Below, one piece after another: positions 1,456-27,095 of a stretch of DNA of 33,498 nucleotides (its first letter is position 1; each line of letters starts with the position of its first letter). The notes beneath the pieces are model-generated. The model saw nothing but the letters and a program-made list of their open reading frames with translations, made no database searches and had not been told where the DNA came from. Both the position numbers and the translations under genes were made by a program. The stretch is from assembly GCA_002781185.1 (NCBI GenBank), contig PEUU01000011.1:1-33498 (forward strand), written 5' to 3'. This DNA is from Candidatus Jorgensenbacteria bacterium CG03_land_8_20_14_0_80_38_39 (GTDB taxonomy: Bacteria; Patescibacteriota; Minisyncoccia; UBA6257; GWB1-50-10).

Positions 1456-2013
1456 ATGCGAAAATTAAAACCCGTTAGAAGTAATCCAGCCGAGGTGAAT
1501 GCCGGTCTACAAGCAGACCGGACTTCTAACGGGTTAAATCGGGAAGAATTTGAGAAAATTGTCGTGGAAGGAATAGAAGCGATTCCGAAAAAGTTTTTGC
1601 GGAAATTGGATAATGTGGCGATTGTTATTGAGGATAAACCGACGCCAGTCCAAAAAAAGAAACTAAACCCCTACACCAATACCATTGGTGTGGGGGTAAA
1701 CATTCATCCGGGCTGGACGCTTTTCGGTTTATACGAAGGCGTGCCGCAGTTGGAACGGGGAGCGAACTACAGCGCGGCGCTTTCAGACAAAATAACTATC
1801 TTCCAAAAGCCGATTGAGGAAGAAGCGGCTAATGAAAAAGATTTGAAAGAAATAGTAAAAAATACCATCTGGCACGAAATTGCCCACCATTTCGGGATGG
1901 ACGAAGCCCGGGTGCGTCAGGCCGAAATCAAAAGGCGGAAAATTTTGCGGCAACGGGAGAAAATCATCCACCGCGACCCGAAGGAGACTGAGGTAAAATC
2001 CATTGTTTTCTGA
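1456..2013 (+). CDS. Zincin-like metallopeptidase (Zincin_1/DUF1025 type) carrying two in-frame palindromic insertions
   Basis: LFGLYEGVP, DKITIFQKPI and HEIAHHFG (HExxH) motifs. Confidence 0.88.
   Translation: MRKLKPVRSNPAEVNAGLQADRTSNGLNREEFEKIVVEGIEAIPKKFLRKLDNVAIVIEDKPTPVQKKKLNPYTNTIGVGVNIHPGWTLFGLYEGVPQLERGANYSAALSDKITIFQKPIEEEAANEKDLKEIVKNTIWHEIAHHFGMDEARVRQAEIKRRKILRQREKIIHRDPKETEVKSIVF
1470..1534. mobile_element. 65-bp palindromic mini-element flanked by TAAA
   Basis: Perfect 13-bp terminal inverted repeats ACCCGTTAGAAGT/ACTTCTAACGGGT; TAAA at 1466-69 and 1535-38; inner hairpin CCGGTCT/AGACCGG. Confidence 0.75.
1668..1696. mobile_element. 29-bp palindromic mini-element flanked by TAAA
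   Basis: CCCCTACACCAAT-ACC-ATTGGTGTGGGGG; TAAA at 1664-67 and 1697-1700. Confidence 0.72.
1971..1987 (+). repeat. Dispersed direct repeat A, copy 1 (CCGCGACCCGAAGGAGA)
   Basis: Identical 17-mer at 1971, 3227 and 5435. Confidence 0.9.
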
Positions 2014-2051
2014 TATAATCATTTAAAGGTTGCCTAATAAAAAATATCAAT

Positions 2052-2603
2052 ATGGGAAATAATAAAATTCTTTACGTTGTCATTGTGCTCTTAATTGCTG
2101 TGATTGTCGGCGGTGGAATCTATTTTATTTTGAATAAACAAGGGGCAAAAACAGAACCTACAAGTCAGCCGCCAACAGCTCCTGCTCCACAGCCGCCAGT
2201 TGCCGGTCAAACGCCGGTCGCGCCAATAAACCAAACCCTTTCAGAGCAACCGAATCAGGCAAAATTTAACGAGTATCTGACTAAAGCCAACTTGGGGAAA
2301 CTTCCGGCAAACGAGAAATTTAATCCTTTTAAAGTCGTAGCGACAACGGTGTTTACGAGCGCTGACCAATTCTGTACCTCGCTGGAGATAAAAAAGACAA
2401 TACCTTCTGGTAGTTTTAGCGTGGCTATCTATGATACTGTTAAAAAAGATTATCTTCAGTCTAAAACTGTTTTTCCGGTAGAGTTGAAAAAAGGAGGTAG
2501 TACTGGTTGTAGCGGCGTCGTAGATCAACCGGCGGGAAAATACGAATACAAAATTTACATTGACGATGTTTTGGCTGTAGTTTTGCCGTACGAGATAAAA
2601 TAG
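2052..2603 (+). CDS. Membrane-anchored hypothetical protein
   Basis: N-terminal TM helix, Pro/Gln linker, beta-rich C-terminal domain with 2 Cys; TGaTATAAT at 2011-19. Confidence 0.8.
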   Translation: MGNNKILYVVIVLLIAVIVGGGIYFILNKQGAKTEPTSQPPTAPAPQPPVAGQTPVAPINQTLSEQPNQAKFNEYLTKANLGKLPANEKFNPFKVVATTVFTSADQFCTSLEIKKTIPSGSFSVAIYDTVKKDYLQSKTVFPVELKKGGSTGCSGVVDQPAGKYEYKIYIDDVLAVVLPYEIK

Positions 2604-2650
2604 CAACAAGACCAGGTTCTTTAAACCCGTCTCTCTGTGTTTAGGAATTC

Positions 2651-2680
2651 AAACAGCCGCGCCAAATCGGCTGTTTTTTG
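2651..2680 (+). terminator. Intrinsic terminator
   Basis: AAACAGCCG/CGGCTGTTT stem followed by a T run. Confidence 0.7.
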
Positions 2681-2775
2681 CGGAAAAATTTCGATTGGTT
2701 AACTTTGGCGGGATTTTTATTCGTCAAAGCCGTTAAAAAAAGATAATGGAGGTATAAAATGTGGGGTTGATATAT

Positions 2776-2800
2776 GTCAACCATTGACTTATTGGTTGAC
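2776..2800. promoter_or_regulatory. Palindrome GTCAAC-N13-GTTGAC, upstream copy
   Basis: GTCAACCATTGACTTATTGGTTGAC; a twin of the same length lies at 3090-3114. Confidence 0.65.
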
Positions 2801-2829
2801 GAAAATTATCATTTAAATATATTAAATGT

Positions 2830-3084
2830 ATGGATAAAAAGTTTCTTTCTACAACTGAGGTGGCGTTGCTCTTGGGCATCAGCCGGCAGGCAGTTTTCAA
2901 AAAAATAAAGTCCGGCCAAATTAAAGCCCGAAAATCTGGCCGCCATTTTGCAATTAGCAGAAAAGATTTGGCCGAAACCTTAAGCGGTACCATAGCCAAG
3001 GCCATGAAAAAGGAAATGGAAAGAGCTGCTTTGAGGGTGGTAGAAAAATATAGCGATATCGTAAAATCATTAGGAGAAGAATAA
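2830..3084 (+). CDS. Excisionase-type (HTH_17) small DNA-binding protein
   Basis: FLSTTEVALLLGISRQAVFKKIKSGQIKARKSGRHFAI fits the MerR/Xis-like winged HTH pattern. Confidence 0.85.
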   Translation: MDKKFLSTTEVALLLGISRQAVFKKIKSGQIKARKSGRHFAISRKDLAETLSGTIAKAMKKEMERAALRVVEKYSDIVKSLGEE

Positions 3085-3089
3085 CTCTC

Positions 3090-3114
3090 GTCAACTATTT
3101 TAAATTTGGTTGAC
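3090..3114. promoter_or_regulatory. Palindrome GTCAAC-N13-GTTGAC, downstream copy
   Basis: GTCAACTATTTTAAATTTGGTTGAC, 5 bp after the HTH stop. Confidence 0.65.
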
Positions 3115-3226
3115 AAGAAAAAAACAAGGGAGAGAAGAAAAATAGATTAAATAGTTATGACGAAAATCAAAGATTTACTATCCCACCGGAAAGTGAAACA
3201 ATGGATGGAAATAAATCGGCTACCCC

Positions 3227-3247
3227 CCGCGACCCGAAGGAGATTTT
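3227..3247 (+). repeat. Dispersed direct repeat A, copy 2
   Basis: CCGCGACCCGAAGGAGATTTT, 21 bp identical to copy 3. Confidence 0.9.
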
Positions 3248-3357
3248 GAAGGGGATTCAAATAAAAAATGAAAAAATCGGCTAATTTCTTTATTTTTTGG
3301 CTATTTTCCTCAGCCTTTGGGTTGAGGATTTTTTGTGGTAGGATTATAATATAGAAT

Positions 3358-4578
3358 ATGCCAATTACAAAAATAGCCACATTCGTAGCACCACAAATTA
3401 AAATCTCTAAACCCTTTGAAACATCTCTTAATGGCGTTGATTTATCTTTTGCAAATATTAAGGAATACGAACGAACAAAACATGTTCACAGATTACATCC
3501 TTATCTTGGGAAATTTATTCCTCAATTGGTAGAAGTATTTTTACGCAGTTATTTTAAAAAAGGCGATTCAATTCTTGACCCCTTTATGGGGTCGGGGACA
3601 ACTTTAATTGAGGCAAATGTGTTGGGCATGCATTCTGCCGGCGTTGAAATTTCGCTATTTAATTGTTTAATAGCTGATATTAAAACCAAAAAATATGATA
3701 TACCCTTAGTTGAAAAAGAAATAAAAGATATTCTTTTTAAGACAAAGGAATATAGTAATTGGTTGGCACAGGGGCAAAAACAGGCCACTTTTTTGCAAAA
3801 ATCTTTTAAAAAATATAAAACTGACAGCGAATATCTTAATAAATGGTTATCAAACAGAGCCTTACAGGAAATATTATTTTATAATGGTCAGATTGAAAAT
3901 TATCAGAATCAAGACATTCTTAAAATTATTTTAAGTCGGGCAACAAGGAGTGCTCGTTTAATACCGCATTATGATCTGGCTAGACCATCAAAGCCGGTTC
4001 GCGGGAAATATTATTGCATAAAACACAGACGGTACTGCGAGCCAATTAATGAAGCAATAAAATTTATAAATAGATATAGTTGGGATACCATCAGAAGAAT
4101 TAAAGAATTTGAAAACATAAGGACAAATGCTCATATAAAAATAATTCAGGGAGATTCGAGAGAGATTGATTTTAACAGGATCGAAGGGTACAAAGGCGGG
4201 AAATTTGATGGGATTTTTACCTCACCGCCGTATGTTGGCCTGATAGATTATCACGACCAACATCGCTATGCTTACGAACTTTTTGGATTTAATGACAACG
4301 GCCTTAAAGAAATCGGCCCAGCTTCAAGAGGTAGAAGTCGTGAAGCCAAAAAAGAATATAAAAATGACATTATTGCCGTATTTCAAAATATGAACCGGTT
4401 TTTAAAACCGAAAGCAAAAATTTTTGTTGTAGTTAACGATAGAGATAATCTTTATCCGGAAGTTGCCTCAGCCTGCGGTTATGAAATTGAAAAAGTTTTT
4501 CACAGGCCCGTTTTAATGAGAACAGAACGTGATAACACGCGTTTTTCAGAAAGTATTTATTATTTTATAAAACGATAA
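3358..4578 (+). CDS. Type II amino-DNA methyltransferase (probably m4C)
   Basis: SAM-binding DPFMGSGTT and catalytic TSPPY motifs; adjacent to an endonuclease gene. Confidence 0.92.
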   Translation: MPITKIATFVAPQIKISKPFETSLNGVDLSFANIKEYERTKHVHRLHPYLGKFIPQLVEVFLRSYFKKGDSILDPFMGSGTTLIEANVLGMHSAGVEISLFNCLIADIKTKKYDIPLVEKEIKDILFKTKEYSNWLAQGQKQATFLQKSFKKYKTDSEYLNKWLSNRALQEILFYNGQIENYQNQDILKIILSRATRSARLIPHYDLARPSKPVRGKYYCIKHRRYCEPINEAIKFINRYSWDTIRRIKEFENIRTNAHIKIIQGDSREIDFNRIEGYKGGKFDGIFTSPPYVGLIDYHDQHRYAYELFGFNDNGLKEIGPASRGRSREAKKEYKNDIIAVFQNMNRFLKPKAKIFVVVNDRDNLYPEVASACGYEIEKVFHRPVLMRTERDNTRFSESIYYFIKR

Positions 4579-4579
4579 T

Positions 4580-5362
4580 ATGGCATTATCTTTAAAAACA
4601 AAAAATGAAATTAGCCAGCTCCTTATCGAAGCAGTTGAGAATAAATTAAAAGAGTACAAACCAGAAACTGCTTATGCTCCTTTTCACCATCGATTACTTG
4701 GTAAAGACAGATATGCCATGTTTTCTTTTATTCAATCAATGAATACTACTTTCGGAATGTCTATTTGGGAGCAGGTTGCAGTGATATTATCCAGGGGAGC
4801 TAATTATAAAGCCGATAGACAATATAAATTACTCGGTGAAATAGATAATGATACTGACGCATTTATTAGAGATACTCATCATAAATTAAGAGAAGGGAAA
4901 ATAACGGTCAATAAAGAAAAAGAAATTGAGCAAATTAGAAAAAGAATAAAGAAAGGCAAAGCAAATGAAGATCCCGATTCAATTGTGGATTTATTTATAA
5001 ATATTAAAGGCGTAGAGAATTACTTCGATATTACCAGTGTTAAATCCAACATAAAAGAATTTGTCGCATTGAAGCTTAAATTACTAAGATGGACTGCATT
5101 AAGATTGAGTCAAGATAATAATGCCACTGTCTTTACTAGACTTGCAATAGCATATAACCCTTATTATCCCGAACCATATGAACGTTGGACATTAAAAGGA
5201 TTATATGACTTAGCAAGAGGAGAAATTTTGGTAGGCGAGGAATTTTGGAATTTTGTTGCTGGCGATGATATTTATAAAGATTTGCTTGATGTTTTTCAGG
5301 AAGCGGGTGAAAAATTAAGGCCGAAAATTGATAAAAGATTTACCAAGTTCAGAAAAGTTTAG
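4580..5362 (+). CDS. Type II restriction endonuclease, TdeIII-like family
   Basis: PFHHRLLG...FSFIQSMNTTFG and IAYNPY segments recalled as typical of RE_TdeIII; starts 1 bp after the methyltransferase stop. Confidence 0.8.
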   Translation: MALSLKTKNEISQLLIEAVENKLKEYKPETAYAPFHHRLLGKDRYAMFSFIQSMNTTFGMSIWEQVAVILSRGANYKADRQYKLLGEIDNDTDAFIRDTHHKLREGKITVNKEKEIEQIRKRIKKGKANEDPDSIVDLFINIKGVENYFDITSVKSNIKEFVALKLKLLRWTALRLSQDNNATVFTRLAIAYNPYYPEPYERWTLKGLYDLARGEILVGEEFWNFVAGDDIYKDLLDVFQEAGEKLRPKIDKRFTKFRKV

Positions 5363-5434
5363 TTTTTTATTTTTAAAATTTCTCCGCAGACTGCCGGAGG
5401 AAATAAAAATTGTGAAAGATAAAAAAACCACCCT

Positions 5435-5455
5435 CCGCGACCCGAAGGAGATTTT
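5435..5455 (+). repeat. Dispersed direct repeat A, copy 3
   Basis: CCGCGACCCGAAGGAGATTTT. Confidence 0.9.
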
Positions 5456-5479
5456 ATAAATTTCAAAATATTTTAAAAA

Positions 5480-5842
5480 ATGACTAATACTATCAAAGAT
5501 GGTCCATTTTGTGTAGATTGTAGAGCAAGAAAAGAATCTAGATTTTGTGTGAATTGTCAAAAGGAGACATCTAATTTATTTCAAGTTCAGATAATAGAGA
5601 CCATGAGGGCCCGAGAATCTATTGGAATAAAACAAAAGCGCCAAGGGTTTAAAGGTTTTATTAAGAAAATTTTTCAAGGATTTAAACCAAGTGGCGATCC
5701 ACAACTATCCCAAGGCGTTGATGTTCAAATGATAGTTGATAAAGAAAAAAATGAATATCACCACATAGTTAAAAATAATTTAACAGGTAAAATATTACAC
5801 GAAGAACACGAAAAGCTGACCGAACATAAACCTAAAAAATAG
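5480..5842 (+). CDS. Hypothetical basic protein with N-terminal zinc ribbon
   Basis: CVDC...CVNC motif; His-rich C-terminus. Confidence 0.7.
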   Translation: MTNTIKDGPFCVDCRARKESRFCVNCQKETSNLFQVQIIETMRARESIGIKQKRQGFKGFIKKIFQGFKPSGDPQLSQGVDVQMIVDKEKNEYHHIVKNNLTGKILHEEHEKLTEHKPKK

Positions 5843-5850
5843 AAACTACG

Positions 5851-5880
5851 ACTTAGCCAACAAAAAATTAGGCCGATAAA
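5851..5880 (+). repeat. Dispersed direct repeat B, copy 1 (GCCAmCAAAAAATTAGGC)
   Basis: Matches copies at 6252-6281 and 8850-8884. Confidence 0.88.
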
Positions 5881-5882
5881 TA

Positions 5883-5916
5883 AACATTCCAACATTCTAT
5901 AGAATGTTAGAATGTT
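5883..5916. repeat. Palindrome P, copy 1 (ACATTCTAACATTCTA|TAGAATGTTAGAATGT type)
   Basis: 34-bp near-perfect palindrome; further copies at 6209-6239 and 7825-7856. Confidence 0.92.
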
Positions 5917-5951
5917 GTAATATGATACGGAAAGGATTATAATTTTTTAAC

Positions 5952-6218
5952 GTGAAAACACCAAAACAGTTAGAACGATATTTTAAGGGTGCGGCAAATC
6001 ATTGGCGAATCGCCATTTTACTTGCCGTTGAGAAAAACGAAGGAATCACAGTAGAAGGGATTGCCGAGGAACTTGATGCCGACTTTAAAAATATTTCTCA
6101 GCACACTCGCCGACTGGTTCAAGCCGGTCTTTTGAATAAAAAGTACCGAGGCCGCCAGGTAGCCCACTCTCTTTCACCCTACGGCAAATCCTTCCTCAGG
6201 TTCATGAGAACATTCTAA
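5952..6218 (+). CDS. ArsR-like winged-helix transcriptional regulator
   Basis: FKGAANHWRIAILL...TVEGIAEEL...NISQHTRRLVQAGLL pattern; GTG start; TATAAT at 5938-43. Confidence 0.85.
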   Translation: MKTPKQLERYFKGAANHWRIAILLAVEKNEGITVEGIAEELDADFKNISQHTRRLVQAGLLNKKYRGRQVAHSLSPYGKSFLRFMRTF

Positions 6219-6239
6219 CATTCTATAGAATGTTAGAAT
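6209..6239. repeat. Palindrome P, copy 2 (contains the ArsR stop codon)
   Basis: AACATTCTAACATTCTATAGAATGTTAGAAT; TAA at 6216-18. Confidence 0.92.
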
Positions 6240-6251
6240 ATATATGAGGTG

Positions 6252-6281
6252 GCCAACAAAAAATTAGGCGAATAAATTTAT
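6252..6281 (+). repeat. Dispersed direct repeat B, copy 2
   Basis: GCCAACAAAAAATTAGGCGAATAAATTTAT. Confidence 0.88.
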
Positions 6282-6290
6282 GACTATTTT

Positions 6291-7796
6291 ATGACTCAGG
6301 AAGAAGCATTAGAAATATTGAAAGCCGGGCACAATGTGTATTTGACCGGAGCAGCGGGAACAGGGAAAACATATTTGCTTAACGAGTATATCCAATTTTT
6401 AAAAGCAGAAAAAATCGGCGTGGCTGTAACCGCTTCTACCGGCATTGCTGCAACTCATCTGGCTGGACTTACGATTCATTCTTGGGCAGGGATCGGAGTT
6501 GAACGTTTTGCCTCGGACGTGGATATAAAAATGATGGCTGCTAATCGCAGAGTGGCTAAGCGATTTGCAGAAACCGATGTGCTTATTATCGATGAAATTT
6601 CCATGCTTGACGCCGACCGCCTAAATTTAGTTGAAAGGGTAGCGAGGATAGCTAAAGGAAATTGGAAACCTTTTGGCGGGATACAAATAGTGCTCTGCGG
6701 AGATTTTTTTCAACTTCCACCGGTGGCTAAGGAAGGCGAGCCTCCGCCGCGGTTTGCCTATCATTCCTCGGCTTGGAAAGAATTAGATTTAAAAATTTGT
6801 TATTTACATGAACAGTATCGGCAAGGGGACCAAAAATTTTTCAATATTCTCAATGCAATTAGGCAAGCCAGAGTAGATAATTTTGTGATATCAAACCTTC
6901 AGGCGCGACGGAATGCAAAACTCGCCAATAAGGAAGTCACCAAACTTTACTCGCACAATGTGGATGTGGATGCAGAGAATATCAAAGAACTTAACCGACT
7001 TCCCGGAAAAGAAATGCATTATAAAATGGAAGCATCAGGCGTTCCCGCAATTGTAAAATTACTTAAAGGCGGATGTCTGGCGCCGGAAATTTTAACGGTT
7101 AAAAAAGGCGCTAAAGTAATGTTTGTAAAAAATAATTTTGAGAAGGGATATGTGAATGGAACACTCGGCAGCGTAGTCGGTTTTAATGATTGGGGATATC
7201 CAATAGTCGCTACCTTTAATGGCCAAGAGATTAGCGCTTCGCCGGAGACATGGAATGTTGAGGAAAACGGCAAGGTGCTTGCCAAAATTACCCAAGTCCC
7301 TTTGAGACTTGCCTGGGCTATTACTATTCACAAAAGCCAGGGGATGACGCTTGACGCGGCAGAAATCAATCTCGCGGAGGCGTTTGAAAAAGGCATGGGA
7401 TATGTGGCTCTTTCGCGGGTCCGCTCCCTTAATGGCATAAAATTGATTGACTTTAATGAAATGGCGTTGCAAGTGCATCCGGAAATTTTAGCCTACGATA
7501 AAGAATTGCAACAGCGTTCAGAGGAAGCGAGACTAAAGTTTTATTCTTTACCAAGTAAGTACAAAAAATTCAAAACAGAAGGAAATGTAAAGGCCTACTC
7601 TGTGAATGAAATCAGAAAATTCTACCCAGCGGCTTATCAGAAATGGTCCTTAGAAGAAGAGAGAAATCTTGTTGATAGTTTTAAAGAAGGTGCGAAGATA
7701 AAAGTAATTGCTAAGAATCTGGGGAGAAAAAGCGGCGCTATCCGCTCGCGTCTAAAAAAGTTGGGATTAATAAAAAATCAGCGGTTCGAAAAATAA
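6291..7796 (+). CDS. Pif1-family SF1B DNA helicase with C-terminal HTH/Myb-like domain
   Basis: GAAGTGKT, TIHSWAGIG, IIDEISM, GDFFQLPPV, AWAITIHKSQGMTL and YVALSRVR motifs. Confidence 0.92.
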   Translation: MTQEEALEILKAGHNVYLTGAAGTGKTYLLNEYIQFLKAEKIGVAVTASTGIAATHLAGLTIHSWAGIGVERFASDVDIKMMAANRRVAKRFAETDVLIIDEISMLDADRLNLVERVARIAKGNWKPFGGIQIVLCGDFFQLPPVAKEGEPPPRFAYHSSAWKELDLKICYLHEQYRQGDQKFFNILNAIRQARVDNFVISNLQARRNAKLANKEVTKLYSHNVDVDAENIKELNRLPGKEMHYKMEASGVPAIVKLLKGGCLAPEILTVKKGAKVMFVKNNFEKGYVNGTLGSVVGFNDWGYPIVATFNGQEISASPETWNVEENGKVLAKITQVPLRLAWAITIHKSQGMTLDAAEINLAEAFEKGMGYVALSRVRSLNGIKLIDFNEMALQVHPEILAYDKELQQRSEEARLKFYSLPSKYKKFKTEGNVKAYSVNEIRKFYPAAYQKWSLEEERNLVDSFKEGAKIKVIAKNLGRKSGAIRSRLKKLGLIKNQRFEK

Positions 7797-7824
7797 AACA
7801 TCTAACACCTTTAATATTTAATAA

Positions 7825-7856
7825 ACATTCTAACATTCTATAGAATGTTAGAATGT
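7825..7856. repeat. Palindrome P, copy 3
   Basis: Perfect 32-bp palindrome ACATTCTAACATTCTATAGAATGTTAGAATGT. Confidence 0.92.
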
Positions 7857-7871
7857 CATTGTAAGAAAATT

Positions 7872-8849
7872 ATGGCAAAGAAAAAGTTGATTAGAATTAA
7901 AGCAACCTATCTCAGTAAAGACCTTCAGCAAATATTAGGAAAAAAGAAAGAGGTATTTCAAGTTCCCCAAGGTTTTAGATCGGGTGATTTTTTTGATTTT
8001 CTTCAAGAACGCTATCAGGAGATATTTAAAAAGTTTGGCCCGGGTTATTTGGGATTTGTTTTAAATGGACAAAAGCCTCATGTTCTTACTTTATTAAAAG
8101 ATGGCGATCATTATAAGTTTATTACCTGGACCGCTAAAGAAATTTTAGAAGATGAATTTGCTAAACATCTTAAAGAAAAAGGGGCGATTATAGAACTGCC
8201 AAAAGGAAAATTTAAAATGCCGAAGTGGATGGGATGTACTTGGCGCCGGGTTGCTTGTGGTAAAGACGATTGTCTAATCTGTGGCCGGATTAAGAGAGAT
8301 CGACAAAAACATATTGAGCAAGGAGAAGACCCTGATGATATGAAATCGGTTTTTGAGGATGTAGATAGAAATTTTAAAGAAGTTTTAAAAATGATAAAGA
8401 AGGATTGTGAAACTTATGGAATTGAATTAACTAATATTGAAAATATTAAAGAGCCGCCAGAACCAGAAGAATTTCCTCTTTATAGAGAAATTGACGATTG
8501 GCGTGATAAAGTGATAGCGTTATTGGGGGAGGCGTATGAAACTGAAGAACTTTGGGTAGAAACCGAAGCGGCGGCTGATTTATCTTGGTATAAAGATACG
8601 ATAGCCGCCAAAATCTATAGACAACTTATCAATAAATGGCATATCGAGCAGGGAGATGAATACGGCGACTTTGATTATAAATACACAAAATATGTTCTTG
8701 GCGAATGTTTAAAAATTCTAAAAAAATCTCTCAATGAATTGATTTTGCTTCAATCTCTTCAAAAAGCGGATTTAATAGTGACTTTAGCGCGTCTTTTAGA
8801 AATTGAGAAAAAGATTTTAAAGACATTAGATAGCCAAAATTTAGGCTGA
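7872..8849 (+). CDS. Hypothetical protein: MoaD/ThiS-like N-terminal domain, Cys4 motif, helical C-terminus
   Basis: ATG at 7872 (the 7845 ATG lies inside palindrome P); ...FVLNG...TLLKDGD; CTWRRVACGKDDCLIC. Confidence 0.72.
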   Translation: MAKKKLIRIKATYLSKDLQQILGKKKEVFQVPQGFRSGDFFDFLQERYQEIFKKFGPGYLGFVLNGQKPHVLTLLKDGDHYKFITWTAKEILEDEFAKHLKEKGAIIELPKGKFKMPKWMGCTWRRVACGKDDCLICGRIKRDRQKHIEQGEDPDDMKSVFEDVDRNFKEVLKMIKKDCETYGIELTNIENIKEPPEPEEFPLYREIDDWRDKVIALLGEAYETEELWVETEAAADLSWYKDTIAAKIYRQLINKWHIEQGDEYGDFDYKYTKYVLGECLKILKKSLNELILLQSLQKADLIVTLARLLEIEKKILKTLDSQNLG

Positions 8850-8884
8850 ACTTAGCCACCAAAAAATTAGGCGATTAAATTTAT
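8850..8884 (+). repeat. Dispersed direct repeat B, copy 3
   Basis: ACTTAGCCACCAAAAAATTAGGCGATTAAATTTAT; degenerate extra copy TAGCCAAAATTTAGGC at 8831-46. Confidence 0.88.
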
Positions 8885-8936
8885 AAGTCAAAAAAGAGTT
8901 TTTATAATTCACGGTTGGGGCGGTTTTCTTGACGAG
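8883..8936 (+). pseudogene. 5' remnant of a YdeN/RBBP9-family alpha/beta hydrolase
   Basis: Reads (ATA)-SQKRVFIIHGWGGFLDE, resembling the family's N-terminus; no start codon and no continuation. Confidence 0.55.
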
Positions 8937-8946
8937 CCTTTACAAT

Positions 8947-9177
8947 ATGAAAATTTTTATCAAGGCGAAACCGAATTCTAAAAAAGGATTTGTGGTAAAA
9001 GTCAGTGAGACGAATTTAATAGTCGCGGTAAAAGAACCGCCGGTCAAGGGCCGCGCTAATGCCGCTATTCAAAAAGCGTTAGCGGAATATTTTAAAGTTT
9101 CGTTATCGCGGATTGTTCTTGTTTCTGGATTTTCTTCAAAAAATAAAATATTTGAAATTAAAGAAATTAAAGAATAA
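8947..9177 (+). CDS. DUF167 (YggU-like) protein
   Basis: MKIFIKAKPNS...VKEPPVKGRANAAI...SGFSSKNK. Confidence 0.9.
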   Translation: MKIFIKAKPNSKKGFVVKVSETNLIVAVKEPPVKGRANAAIQKALAEYFKVSLSRIVLVSGFSSKNKIFEIKEIKE

Positions 9178-11604: not shown

Positions 11605-11705
11605 TTAATGGTTCGACCTCGCTCACCATTAATCTTGAGCGCAGTCGAAGGATTAATGGTTCAACCTCGCTCACCATTAATCCTGAGCGCAGTCGAAGGA
11701 TTAAT
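11605..11705. repeat. Tandem pair of 48-bp REP-like palindromic units
   Basis: TTAATGGTTCRACCTCGCTCACCATTAATCYTGAGCGCAGTCGAAGGA x2, two differences. Confidence 0.9.
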
Positions 11706-21546: not shown

Positions 21547-22664
21547 ATGCCAGAGAAATTTGAGTTTCAGAATTTCAAAGAATCTTTAGAAAAAAAGGGA
21601 ACTTTGGAAATAGAAAAAAAGAGAGATATGATAACTGATAAACAAAGAACAGAAAGTAAAAAAAGAGAGAAGTGATAACTGATAAACAAAGAACAGAAAG
21701 TAAAAAAAGAGAGAAGATACTGAAAGGATACCAGAGAATTGTGGCCGAAGAATTGAAAAAAAATCCCATTGAATTATTACCACTCTTTCCGAGCATAACT
21801 ATTCAGGAGTTAAAAGAACAGTTTCCGGATAAAAGAAGGATAATTGCCTGCGATTTTTATATTGAAAATATTGAATTAGGGAAAGAAAATGTTGGGGGAT
21901 ATAGCGTTGAAAATGTAATCCAGATTGATCATCATGCTCCTACACTCAGAATGCTGAAACCAATTTCCAGCACGAATTTAGCAATGGCATATGTTAAGGA
22001 GGAGGGAATAGCATCACCAGCAGATTGTGTGGTCATTAATCATACTGATTGTGATAGTGTTCTTTCTAGCGCAATTATACGCGGCATATTACCTCCGGAA
22101 AAAAGATTTGGAGATGCCGCCATTGCCGCTGATCATACCGGTGAAAAAAATGAAATAGCAGATTTATTGACGGCCCTTGAAGAAGAAAGAAATCTTGAAT
22201 ATTCTTTAATTCATTTAAAATTATTATTGGACCATAAAGATTTATTGGACCATAAAGATTTAGATGAAAAAGCAAAAATTCTTTTAGAAAGGTGGCTTAA
22301 TGAACGAAAACGCGCTGAAGAATTGACGCGGTCAGTTGAAGGCGGTTTTAAACAGACGGGAAATGTTTGGTATGCGAAAGTAGATAAAAAAATAGAAAGT
22401 GTTTTTTTCCCTGCGTTTTTGCCAGAGACAATGGTAATAATTATTGCTAGTCCTTTAAAAAACTCTGATAAACTTGATATTAAAGTTCGTTTAGGAATAA
22501 AGGCTCCTGAGGGGTTGATGCTAAATAAATTAGATCTTCCTGATTTTGGCGGGCGTTGGAATGCGGGAAGTACAAAAAGACACGCCGGCACAAGTATACC
22601 GCTGGAAGAATACGCTCGTATTGTAAACGATAAAATAAAACAATATTTAGCCAAGAAGAATTAA
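21547..22664 (+). CDS. DHH-like phosphoesterase, split near its 5' end by a 44-bp duplication (main ORF 21672-22664)
   Basis: IDHH, NHTDCDS and ADHTG motifs; ATG 21547 frame stops at 21675; GTG 21672 continues. Confidence 0.65.
21629..21716 (+). repeat. Exact 44-bp tandem duplication
   Basis: TGATAACTGATAAACAAAGAACAGAAAGTAAAAAAAGAGAGAAG x2. Confidence 0.95.
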
Positions 22665-26816: not shown

Positions 26817-26849
26817 TGATTTATTGGTTTTATTTTGTTTTCTCCATCT

Positions 26850-27095
26850 TCTTTTGACTTACTTCTTTTGACTTCTTTTGACTTACTTCTTTTTCTTTTG
26901 ACTTATTTTTCACTTGACTTATTTTTCACTTGACTTATTTTTCACTTATTTTTCTTTATTTTTTCCCTTCCTCAATCTTGTATCATATGATACAAGATTG
27001 AGGACTTGAGGTTTCTTTATAAAAACTCTTTCTTTACAATTTTCTCTTTATAGAAATTTTCCTTTATAGAAATCTTCCTTTATAAAAATTTTCTC
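26850..27095. repeat. Pyrimidine-rich tandem repeats around a perfect 36-bp palindrome
   Basis: TTTTGACTT and ACTTATTTTTCACTTG units; TCCTCAATCTTGTATCAT|ATGATACAAGATTGAGGA at 26969-27004; TTATAGAAATYTTCCT units. Confidence 0.85.

Follow-up and report, generated by a model that had tools for sequence, protein, structure and literature searches.

The stretch analysed here (the window) is the entire 33.5-kb contig PEUU01000011.1 (C31) from the 550,298-nt, 37-contig genome of Candidatus Jorgensenbacteria bacterium CG03_land_8_20_14_0_80_38_39, which is rated 100% complete and whose best-matching relatives are labelled Patescibacteria or Candidate Phyla Radiation (CPR). CPR bacteria have tiny genomes with few recognisable mobile-element genes, and their gain of accessory and defence genes is poorly understood. 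The genome has a mean GC content of 38.4% (5th percentile of its 1-kb windows, 33.3%) and stands alone in its genus within the genome collection searched. Our subject is a run of accessory genes in this window, all on the plus strand, between which three short motifs recur: A (CGCGACCCGAAGGAGA) at 1972, 3228 and 5436, B (GCCAMCAAAAAATTAGGC) at 5856, 6252 and 8855, and P, the core (AACATTCTATAGAATGTT) of a perfect palindrome of 33–37 nt, at 5891, 6217 and 7832. There are three copies of each motif, all within 1971–8880, and the directional motifs all lie on the plus strand. An earlier note, made from the sequence alone, had taken this region for a repeat-delimited array of gene cassettes; the order and common orientation of the genes that it described were confirmed, and profile searches assigned most of them to families.

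The series begins with a Zincin_1 metallopeptidase gene (1456–2013; Pfam PF06262, 3.9e-23), whose similarity to its relatives stops near position 1942 (relatives match amino acids 27–163 only) and whose tail reads through the first copy of A (A1, 1971–1987). That A is the native C-terminus of Zincin_1 was ruled out, the C-termini of the relatives ending before A and lacking it. A membrane-anchored open reading frame (ORF) of 183 amino acids follows (2052–2603; no family matched in profile searches), and then an excisionase-family helix-turn-helix (HTH) gene (2830–3084; HTH_17, 2.7e-10; TIGR01764, 7.6e-10; weak MAD1 match), which is placed between two GTCAAC..GTTGAC inverted repeats (2776–2805 and 3090–3119; whole feature 2776–3119). 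We infer that these repeats are possibly the operators of the HTH gene itself, or that the HTH gene is possibly a controller for the restriction-modification (R-M) pair behind it. The second copy of A (A2, 3211–3247, core 3227–3243) precedes this pair, which consists of an N6_N4 methyltransferase (MTase) gene (3358–4578; PF01555, 1.2e-16; PADLOC MTase_II, 3e-118; GC 33.7%) and a TdeIII-family restriction endonuclease (REase) gene (4580–5362; PF09520 RE_TdeIII, 3e-59; GC 32.3%). Adjacent genes of matching families make it a type II R-M system of the TdeIII family. Between A2 and the MTase promoter lies a candidate gene, a hydrophobic small ORF of 28 codons (3268–3354; MKKSANFFIFWLF...), with which a terminator-like hairpin (3307–3328) overlaps. 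The third copy of A (A3, 5419–5455, core 5435–5451) is followed by a Zn-ribbon ORF of 120 amino acids with the pattern CxxC..CxxC (5480–5842; GC 32.0%), for which a search of the ESM Atlas returned a weak Zn-ribbon label only.

From here on, B and P take the place of A. The first copy of B (B1, 5847–5881, core 5856–5873) is followed by the first palindrome (P1, 5884–5916), which abuts the -35 box of the arsR promoter (TTGTAA-17-TATAAT, 5915–5943). The arsR gene (5952–6218) encodes an ArsR-family winged-helix regulator of 88 amino acids without a cysteine, which matches PF01022 HTH_5 above the cut-off (2.6e-6) and NF033788 at 8.1e-11 and 41.6 bits, under the curated cut-off of 55. Its stop codon is contained in the left arm of the second palindrome (P2, 6210–6242), and 12 nt past P2 comes the second copy of B (B2, 6243–6281, core 6252–6269), about 20 nt ahead of the start of a Pif1/RecD-like SF1B helicase gene (6291–7796; PF05970, 1.5e-41). 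Just ahead of that start, an 11-nt tandem duplication at 6271–6301 (TTTATGACTAT / TTTATGACTCA) adds a dead-end ATG that precedes the true one. The third palindrome (P3, 7824–7856) separates Pif1 from an ORF of 325 amino acids (7872–8849), for which profile searches matched no family, the fetched loci held no homolog save one weak N-terminal match in locus L116, and the ESM Atlas gave no usable lead. The last copy of B (B3, 8846–8884, core 8855–8872) leads into a relic of a serine hydrolase gene (8883–8946), comprising its first 21 codons or so with the start decayed to ATA and recognised by its match to locus L081, and the relic adjoins a DUF167 gene identified with Pfam (8947–9177).

This clustering of the motifs is not what would be expected by chance, as none of 100 dinucleotide shuffles reached three matches for A, for B or for P. 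A, B or P is present at seven of the nine gene junctions of the accessory stretch. When the whole genome was scanned, A and B were confined to their three sites each in the window, and P was found at its three sites and as one variant with two mismatches at C21:797–814, within mnmA. The statement of the earlier note that short motifs mark most junctions and are absent from the housekeeping part of the window therefore holds genome-wide, bar that variant. The mnmA site, taken at its full length (C21:790–826, locus L007), is a complete P-type double palindrome in the coding region (amino acids 324–336, in the C-terminal barrel domain according to Pfam), and mnmA itself ends in three 42-nt tandem repeats.

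The motif that could be followed furthest is P. Our comparison sets comprised 301 genomes of the order, 80 Zincin_1 loci from metagenomes and 30 fetched arsR loci, 29 of them foreign. Homologs of arsR exist in 83 of the 301 genomes, and the palindrome ACATTCT-NN-AGAATGT, allowing up to two mismatches, was present in all 30 arsR loci. After the loci had been oriented, it was found upstream of arsR in 29/29 foreign loci, with its centre 34–127 nt (mostly 34–57 nt) ahead of the start codon, and downstream in 24/29; in 16 of the 29 the centre of the downstream copy lies exactly 8 nt past the stop codon, so that the stop codon is contained in its left arm as in the genome studied here. The full site reads AACATTCyAACATTCT-NN-AGAATGTTrGAATGTT, a 16-2-16 structure with two tandem half-sites per arm, of which the arms are conserved and the central dinucleotide varies across arsR loci. 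A -10 box follows the upstream copy, and a T-run often follows the downstream one. In four of the foreign loci (L031, L033, L037 and L055) an insert of about 10–55 nt at the centre separates the two arms of the downstream palindrome, which results in a longer hairpin with the same arms.

An inverted repeat that sits at the promoter of arsR and is conserved together with this gene is what would be expected of an operator, and we infer that P is bound by an autoregulated, dimeric winged-helix repressor of the ArsR family. The copy at the -35 box of the arsR promoter would serve autoregulation, the copy over the arsR stop codon, which is terminator-like in many relatives owing to its T-run, might also control or insulate the next gene, and the third copy would act before the gene that follows Pif1. 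The protein is probably no metal sensor, judged by its lack of cysteine, without an alignment to characterised metal- or metalloid-sensing sites.

The genes around arsR are linked to it beyond this genome. Homologs of Pif1 (E ≤1e-60) were found in 51/301 genomes of the order, and in nine foreign genomes Pif1 lies within 3.5 kb of arsR. In G169, which belongs to another family, the order is P–arsR–P–Pif1–P, an ORF of 241 amino acids and a serine hydrolase; in G151 it is P–arsR–P, an ORF of 119 amino acids, Pif1 and P; and in G312 it is arsR–P–Pif1. The corresponding order in the genome studied here (G000) is P–arsR–P–B–Pif1–P, the 325-amino-acid ORF, B and the hydrolase relic. Pif1 is followed by P in G008, G169 and G151 as well; in G008, a member of the same family, ArsR and Pif1 are 83% and 69% identical to the proteins of this genome. 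In addition, arsR is located directly upstream of Zincin_1 in 5 of the 80 metagenome loci and in G058. Because P is tied to arsR and the gene order recurs in another family, the segment 5880–8946 is read as a predicted regulon cluster whose middle gene varies, and not as four independent cassettes, and arsR, Pif1, the variable gene and the hydrolase would constitute its conserved members. P is thereby lost as the cassette-boundary site for which the earlier note had taken it.

For A and B, the evidence points to a common origin with P in one leader. When 185,579 species genomes were searched for the 21-mer CCGCGAYCCGAAGGAGATTTT, six matches were obtained, four of them in CPR genomes. These four belong to other genera and their flanks are not syntenic with the genome studied here; in each of them, as well as in the metagenome locus L073, A is present in a single copy, here in three. 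In one of them, a Wolfebacteria metagenome-assembled genome (MAG; locus L183), an intergenic region of about 110 nt contains a terminator, a -10 box, A, 11 nt, B, 9 nt, a P-like palindrome and a small gene, in this order. In L073, A is followed after 15 nt by B, and an exact P occurs 3.7 kb further on, whereas locus L062 displays both B–P–arsR and B–ATG–Zincin_1. The arrangement arsR–P–N12/14–B is common to this genome and G008. When the leader of L183 was aligned to the window, its left part corresponded to A3 and its right part to B1–P1, with the Zn-ribbon gene exactly between the two. A and B would hence be pieces of the same leader as P, which elsewhere stand next to each other as A–B–P, A–B or B–P–arsR.

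As structures, A and B are linear motifs of about 20–25 nt (range 17–35 nt). Folds computed around A on both strands revealed no shared structure (z between -1.7 and +1.0 on the plus strand); on the minus strand one of the five was notable, namely A3 with z -2.8. The core of B occurs 0–1 times in most genomes of the order, which equals a reversed-pattern control, with exceptions including G008 (10 matches) and G128 (4). Since matches are at control level in most genomes, B is lineage-restricted and a general ribosome-binding site (RBS) was ruled out. Most order-wide matches to A with at most one mismatch were attributed to chance, as they fall in coding sequence (CCA-adding enzyme, PGK-like). 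We also considered whether A might derive from the 3' end of an hsdM gene: a 23-mer is found in frame (HRDPKEIL) in a type I hsdM of G018, but similarity beyond these 23 nt is weak and no further hsdM relic exists in the genome, and this stays a lead.

At several places, changes in gene presence and absence between relatives coincide with a motif. The identity between A2 and A3 is 96% when 26 nt are compared and 84% when 37 nt are; between them lies the R-M pair, a 2.2-kb segment of 32–34% GC in a genome with a mean of 38.4%. B3 together with the decayed hydrolase start (8855–8925) is 86% identical over 71 nt to positions 6105–6175 of L081, where B is followed by the beginning of an intact serine hydrolase of 194 amino acids, which in turn precedes Zincin_1 and DUF167; the hydrolase remnant that the earlier note had recognised is thereby substantiated. 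In the same locus, a SNase gene is flanked by B and the same 17-codon gene relic. Of the 11 B-type matches of G008, ten fall into two arrays of small, co-oriented accessory genes, the first of them at the arsR/Pif1 locus and the second around Zincin_1, and segments bounded by B include genes of 57–61% GC in loci of 45–48%. A perfect 83-nt repeat in G008 flanks an HD gene and Zincin_1, and a 420-nt unit is present twice with 91% identity, beginning exactly at B and reaching to the ATG of two different genes. This unit (L056, 15330–15760 and 12047–12465) comprises B, a GC-rich broken small ORF, a terminator, a promoter, a Shine-Dalgarno (SD) sequence and the ATG, and the two genes downstream are unrelated. 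Judged from their translations only, long proteins with a LexA-like N-terminal DNA-binding region edge the B arrays in G008 (L057, 6298–7824) and in L081 (1219–3036), the latter apparently fused to an N6 MTase-like part. The gene content of the region differs between relatives, which bears out the view of a variable, co-oriented accessory region; L092 has the upstream neighbours, 83% and 68% identical, in a different order.

Taking these findings together, we lean slightly towards the following reading: an ArsR-controlled gene cluster possesses a conserved A–B–P leader, and gene insertions that duplicated their target have raised the copy number of this leader and broken it up. The modules that would have joined are the membrane gene with the HTH gene, the type II R-M pair and the Zn-ribbon gene, and the addition of each would leave behind a direct duplicate of part of the leader, either by insertion with target duplication or by single-crossover integration at a leader copy through RecA. 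What is seen directly is where the motifs lie, the tie between P and arsR, the adjacency of A, B and P elsewhere and the breakpoints at the motifs; the mode of insertion, the binding of a repressor to P and the roles of A and B, which may be leader or RBS elements, are deduced from these.

The same motifs could also be purely regulatory, that is, A, B and P might be expression signals of co-regulated genes (an operator, the site of a second factor or an element of the 5' untranslated region, a shared A-rich ribosome-binding leader) with no part in gene gain or loss. Every copy indeed lies in an intergenic spacer upstream of a plus-strand gene, A follows a -10 box in L181 and L183, SD-like AAGGAG and AGGAG are contained in A and B, and the spacing P–N12–B is kept between this genome and G008, where B ends in AGGAG followed after 9–11 nt by the ATG of Pif1, Zincin_1 and TfoX. 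In the window, however, B reads AGGCG and only one of its three copies is correctly spaced from a live start, and several B copies precede terminators or dead gene starts. The perfect 83-nt and the 91%-identical 420-nt repeats point towards recent duplication instead of convergent selection, and in most genomes of the order, matches to B are about as numerous as those to the reversed-pattern control. We therefore regard an exclusively regulatory role as unlikely.

The earlier note had proposed an integron-like exchange of one- and two-gene modules at these motifs, near a transfer RNA (tRNA) gene. According to this proposal, A and/or B would be sites of an undescribed site-specific system trading such cassettes, an integron analogue either without integrase or with one encoded in trans. 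Several observations agree with it: the motifs are co-oriented, located at junctions and confined to the locus, B usually lies 0–35 nt past a stop codon, the position that attC occupies in integron cassettes, breakpoints coincide with A and B, the arrays of G008 hold compositionally foreign genes, and the genome encodes one large serine recombinase. That recombinase is however located on another contig (C1:308–1852; RecA is on contig 18), and no copy of A or B was found beyond the contig of the window; the search for a recombinase near the motifs that the earlier note had suggested thus found none. A search of the 550-kb genome with PF00589 detected no tyrosine recombinase (the control matched 14/14 known genomes), and the lack of an integrase that the earlier note had claimed thus extends to a genome rated as complete. 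ARAGORN found no tRNA gene in the 33.5-kb window, and the hotspot is thus not confirmed as tRNA-proximal; with neither tRNA gene nor integrase, the locus does not qualify as a tRNA-targeted genomic island. Rfam at the gathering score matched no family within the window. The flanking duplicates vary in length (26, 30, 75 and 83 nt), unlike a fixed core site, A is a single copy in the four other genomes, A and B are unfolded and not palindromic, and P is accounted for by arsR. As for a partner site on mobile DNA, the 12 matches of viral contigs to the 17-mer of A were all in GC-rich coding or RBS contexts, with no attP-like partner among them, and in the phage and plasmid collections the sole match to the window was one of 208 nt at 69% identity, inside the helicase gene. 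What stands of the exchange proposal is the confinement of the motifs to the accessory region and several breakpoints at A and B (the Zn-ribbon gene, the B3 relic, the inserts of G008), seen in comparisons across genera; P as an exchange site and attC-like structure do not, nor was excision or site-specific recombination seen in the assembled contigs of the four groundwater runs described next. We consider a site-specific cassette system of this kind quite improbable.

The window is contained in 24 groundwater or aquifer runs, in all of them as assembled contigs (Logan, 31-mer), and four of these runs (X1, X17, X22 and X24) were compared. The contigs contain four joints that skip parts of the locus (5453>5878, 6283>7823, 6278>8854 and 5907>6253), with sides of at most 30 nt and no shared letters; one of them, present in X17 and X24, connects A3 with the flank of P1 and leaves out the Zn-ribbon gene and B1. 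These joints probably come from related organisms with the motifs in other combinations; they fit a modular picture and are no evidence of excision. All four runs also contain a second allele of the C-terminal half of the REase gene (4820–5378), which differs at 44 of 559 nt (about 92% identity). In three of the runs its depth is comparable, and in X24 only the variant contig was counted there.

The possibility that the repeats have produced a chimeric or mis-ordered contig in this MAG was weighed against the same contigs. The P copies of 33–37 nt exceed the 31-mer of the Logan contigs, which do break at P. In X1, which may be the source sample, difference-free contigs nevertheless span A1, A2 and A3 as well as B1, B2 and B3 at an even depth of about 23–30; contigs of X17 span A2 (one difference), B2 (one) and B3 (none), and among the listed pieces of X22 and X24, one from either run crosses B3 and one from X24 crosses A1, the others lying between the motifs. 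Mis-assembly is very improbable because contigs of X1 span every copy of A and B and the gene order is kept in relatives, arsR followed by Pif1 and P being reproduced in G169, G312 and G151.

Several observations weigh against insertion into a shared leader as well. Every insertion was deduced across genera, no empty site of the same species having turned up in the collections searched; the scan of metagenome contigs for Zincin_1 revealed no contig of the same species, with 75% as its best identity. The read evidence consists of assembled contigs only. No protein or RNA structure could be assigned to A. By tblastn, arsR was not found in the genome of L183 or in the three other A-bearing genomes, and the P-like site of L183 may therefore be a relic, A and B being able to exist without the regulator. 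B is followed by a terminator and not by a gene in some of its copies in G008 and G323, and it therefore cannot be simply a 5' leader. Finally, the direct repeat of 26–37 nt around the R-M pair is borderline for the flanking direct repeat of more than 30 bp that Furuta, Abe and Kobayashi (2010, PMC2853133) require for an insertion with long target duplication.

A broader form of the idea would make the A–B–P leader a portable insertion platform of CPR bacteria. Genes from outside would enter at A or B or next to them, each time duplicating a piece of the leader, by RecA-dependent single crossover or some nicking mechanism and without a dedicated integrase, and the resulting co-oriented arrays under an ArsR-type repressor would be an integrase-free functional counterpart of integrons. 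We put this forward tentatively and hold it to be rather doubtful.

Further features of the window were noted in passing. The Zincin_1 ORF contains a hairpin of about 67 nt (1469–1535; dG -32.7) in an N-terminal extension of 27 amino acids, and its homologs are without this hairpin; an in-frame palindrome of 33 nt (1667–1698; dG -24.1) is likewise absent from the homologs, and both hairpins are unique in the genome. Three further repeat regions lie at 11605–11700, 21614–21701 and 26824–26958; they comprise two tandem repeats, of 2 × 48 nt and of 2 × 44 nt, and short clustered repeats of the CTTTTGACTTA type.

The predicted pair of regulator and operator is of interest beyond this locus. Roughly one in four of the genomes sampled from the order encodes an ArsR-family regulator with a very regular putative operator of 34 nt, which ties together a Pif1 helicase, a Zincin_1 peptidase and a hydrolase, offering a testable regulon in organisms that are not culturable alone; a literature search found no paper on an ArsR-linked palindrome in Patescibacteria. 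The pieces of the leader coincide with presence/absence breakpoints in several genera, and if insertion targets them, this would be a simple, integrase-free route of gene acquisition.

Among known systems, the R-M insertions described by Furuta et al. (PMC2853133) come close to what is seen around the R-M pair. The putative insert at 3248–5418 contains the R and the M gene, is shorter than 20 kb and has no mobility gene, as in their definition of an insertion; here, too, the type II pair is low in GC, the direct repeats that flank it occur nowhere else in the genome apart from the third copy of the motif, and one of the repeats touches the 3' end of a gene. In contrast to those insertions, the same target, a motif conserved across genera, appears here to have been used on three occasions.

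R-M systems with a controller (C) protein resemble the locus in that a small HTH gene, with inverted repeats on either side, immediately precedes the MTase and REase genes. The HTH protein is however of the excisionase/MerR-like HTH_17 and not of the Xre type, and A2, a terminator-like hairpin and a promoter-like site intervene here between the HTH gene and the MTase gene.

Integrons, and clusters of attC sites lacking an integrase (CALINs), share with the locus the co-oriented units of one or two genes, a short conserved element after most stop codons, some genes of foreign composition and, in the case of CALINs, the lack of an integrase nearby. attC sites are imperfect palindromes of roughly 60–140 nt that fold as single strands, whereas A and B are linear and unfolded, as the earlier note had rightly assumed in denying canonical attC sites, and P is a perfect palindrome but tied to arsR. 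Moreover, most units have their own promoter-like or terminator-like sequences, and one of the three motifs is a predicted repressor operator. Because IntI is absent from the entire genome and A and B are without attC-like structure, the stretch is neither an integron nor a CALIN. A literature search on integrons or attC sites in the Candidate Phyla Radiation returned no paper on this subject, as judged by titles and the openings of abstracts.

The closest counterpart of P and its regulator are the ArsR/SmtB repressors, which are likewise small winged-helix proteins with a palindrome at their own promoter and further copies before neighbouring genes. Inverted-repeat operators of ArsR/SmtB repressors include the 12-2-12 type; the predicted operator here is longer (16-2-16), one copy of it regularly contains the stop codon of the regulator gene itself, and the linked genes encode a Pif1 helicase, Zincin_1 and a hydrolase in place of metal efflux. 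P and arsR are predicted to be a further ArsR/SmtB repressor-operator pair, unusual in the length of its operator, one copy of which extends over the end of the regulator gene, stop codon included.

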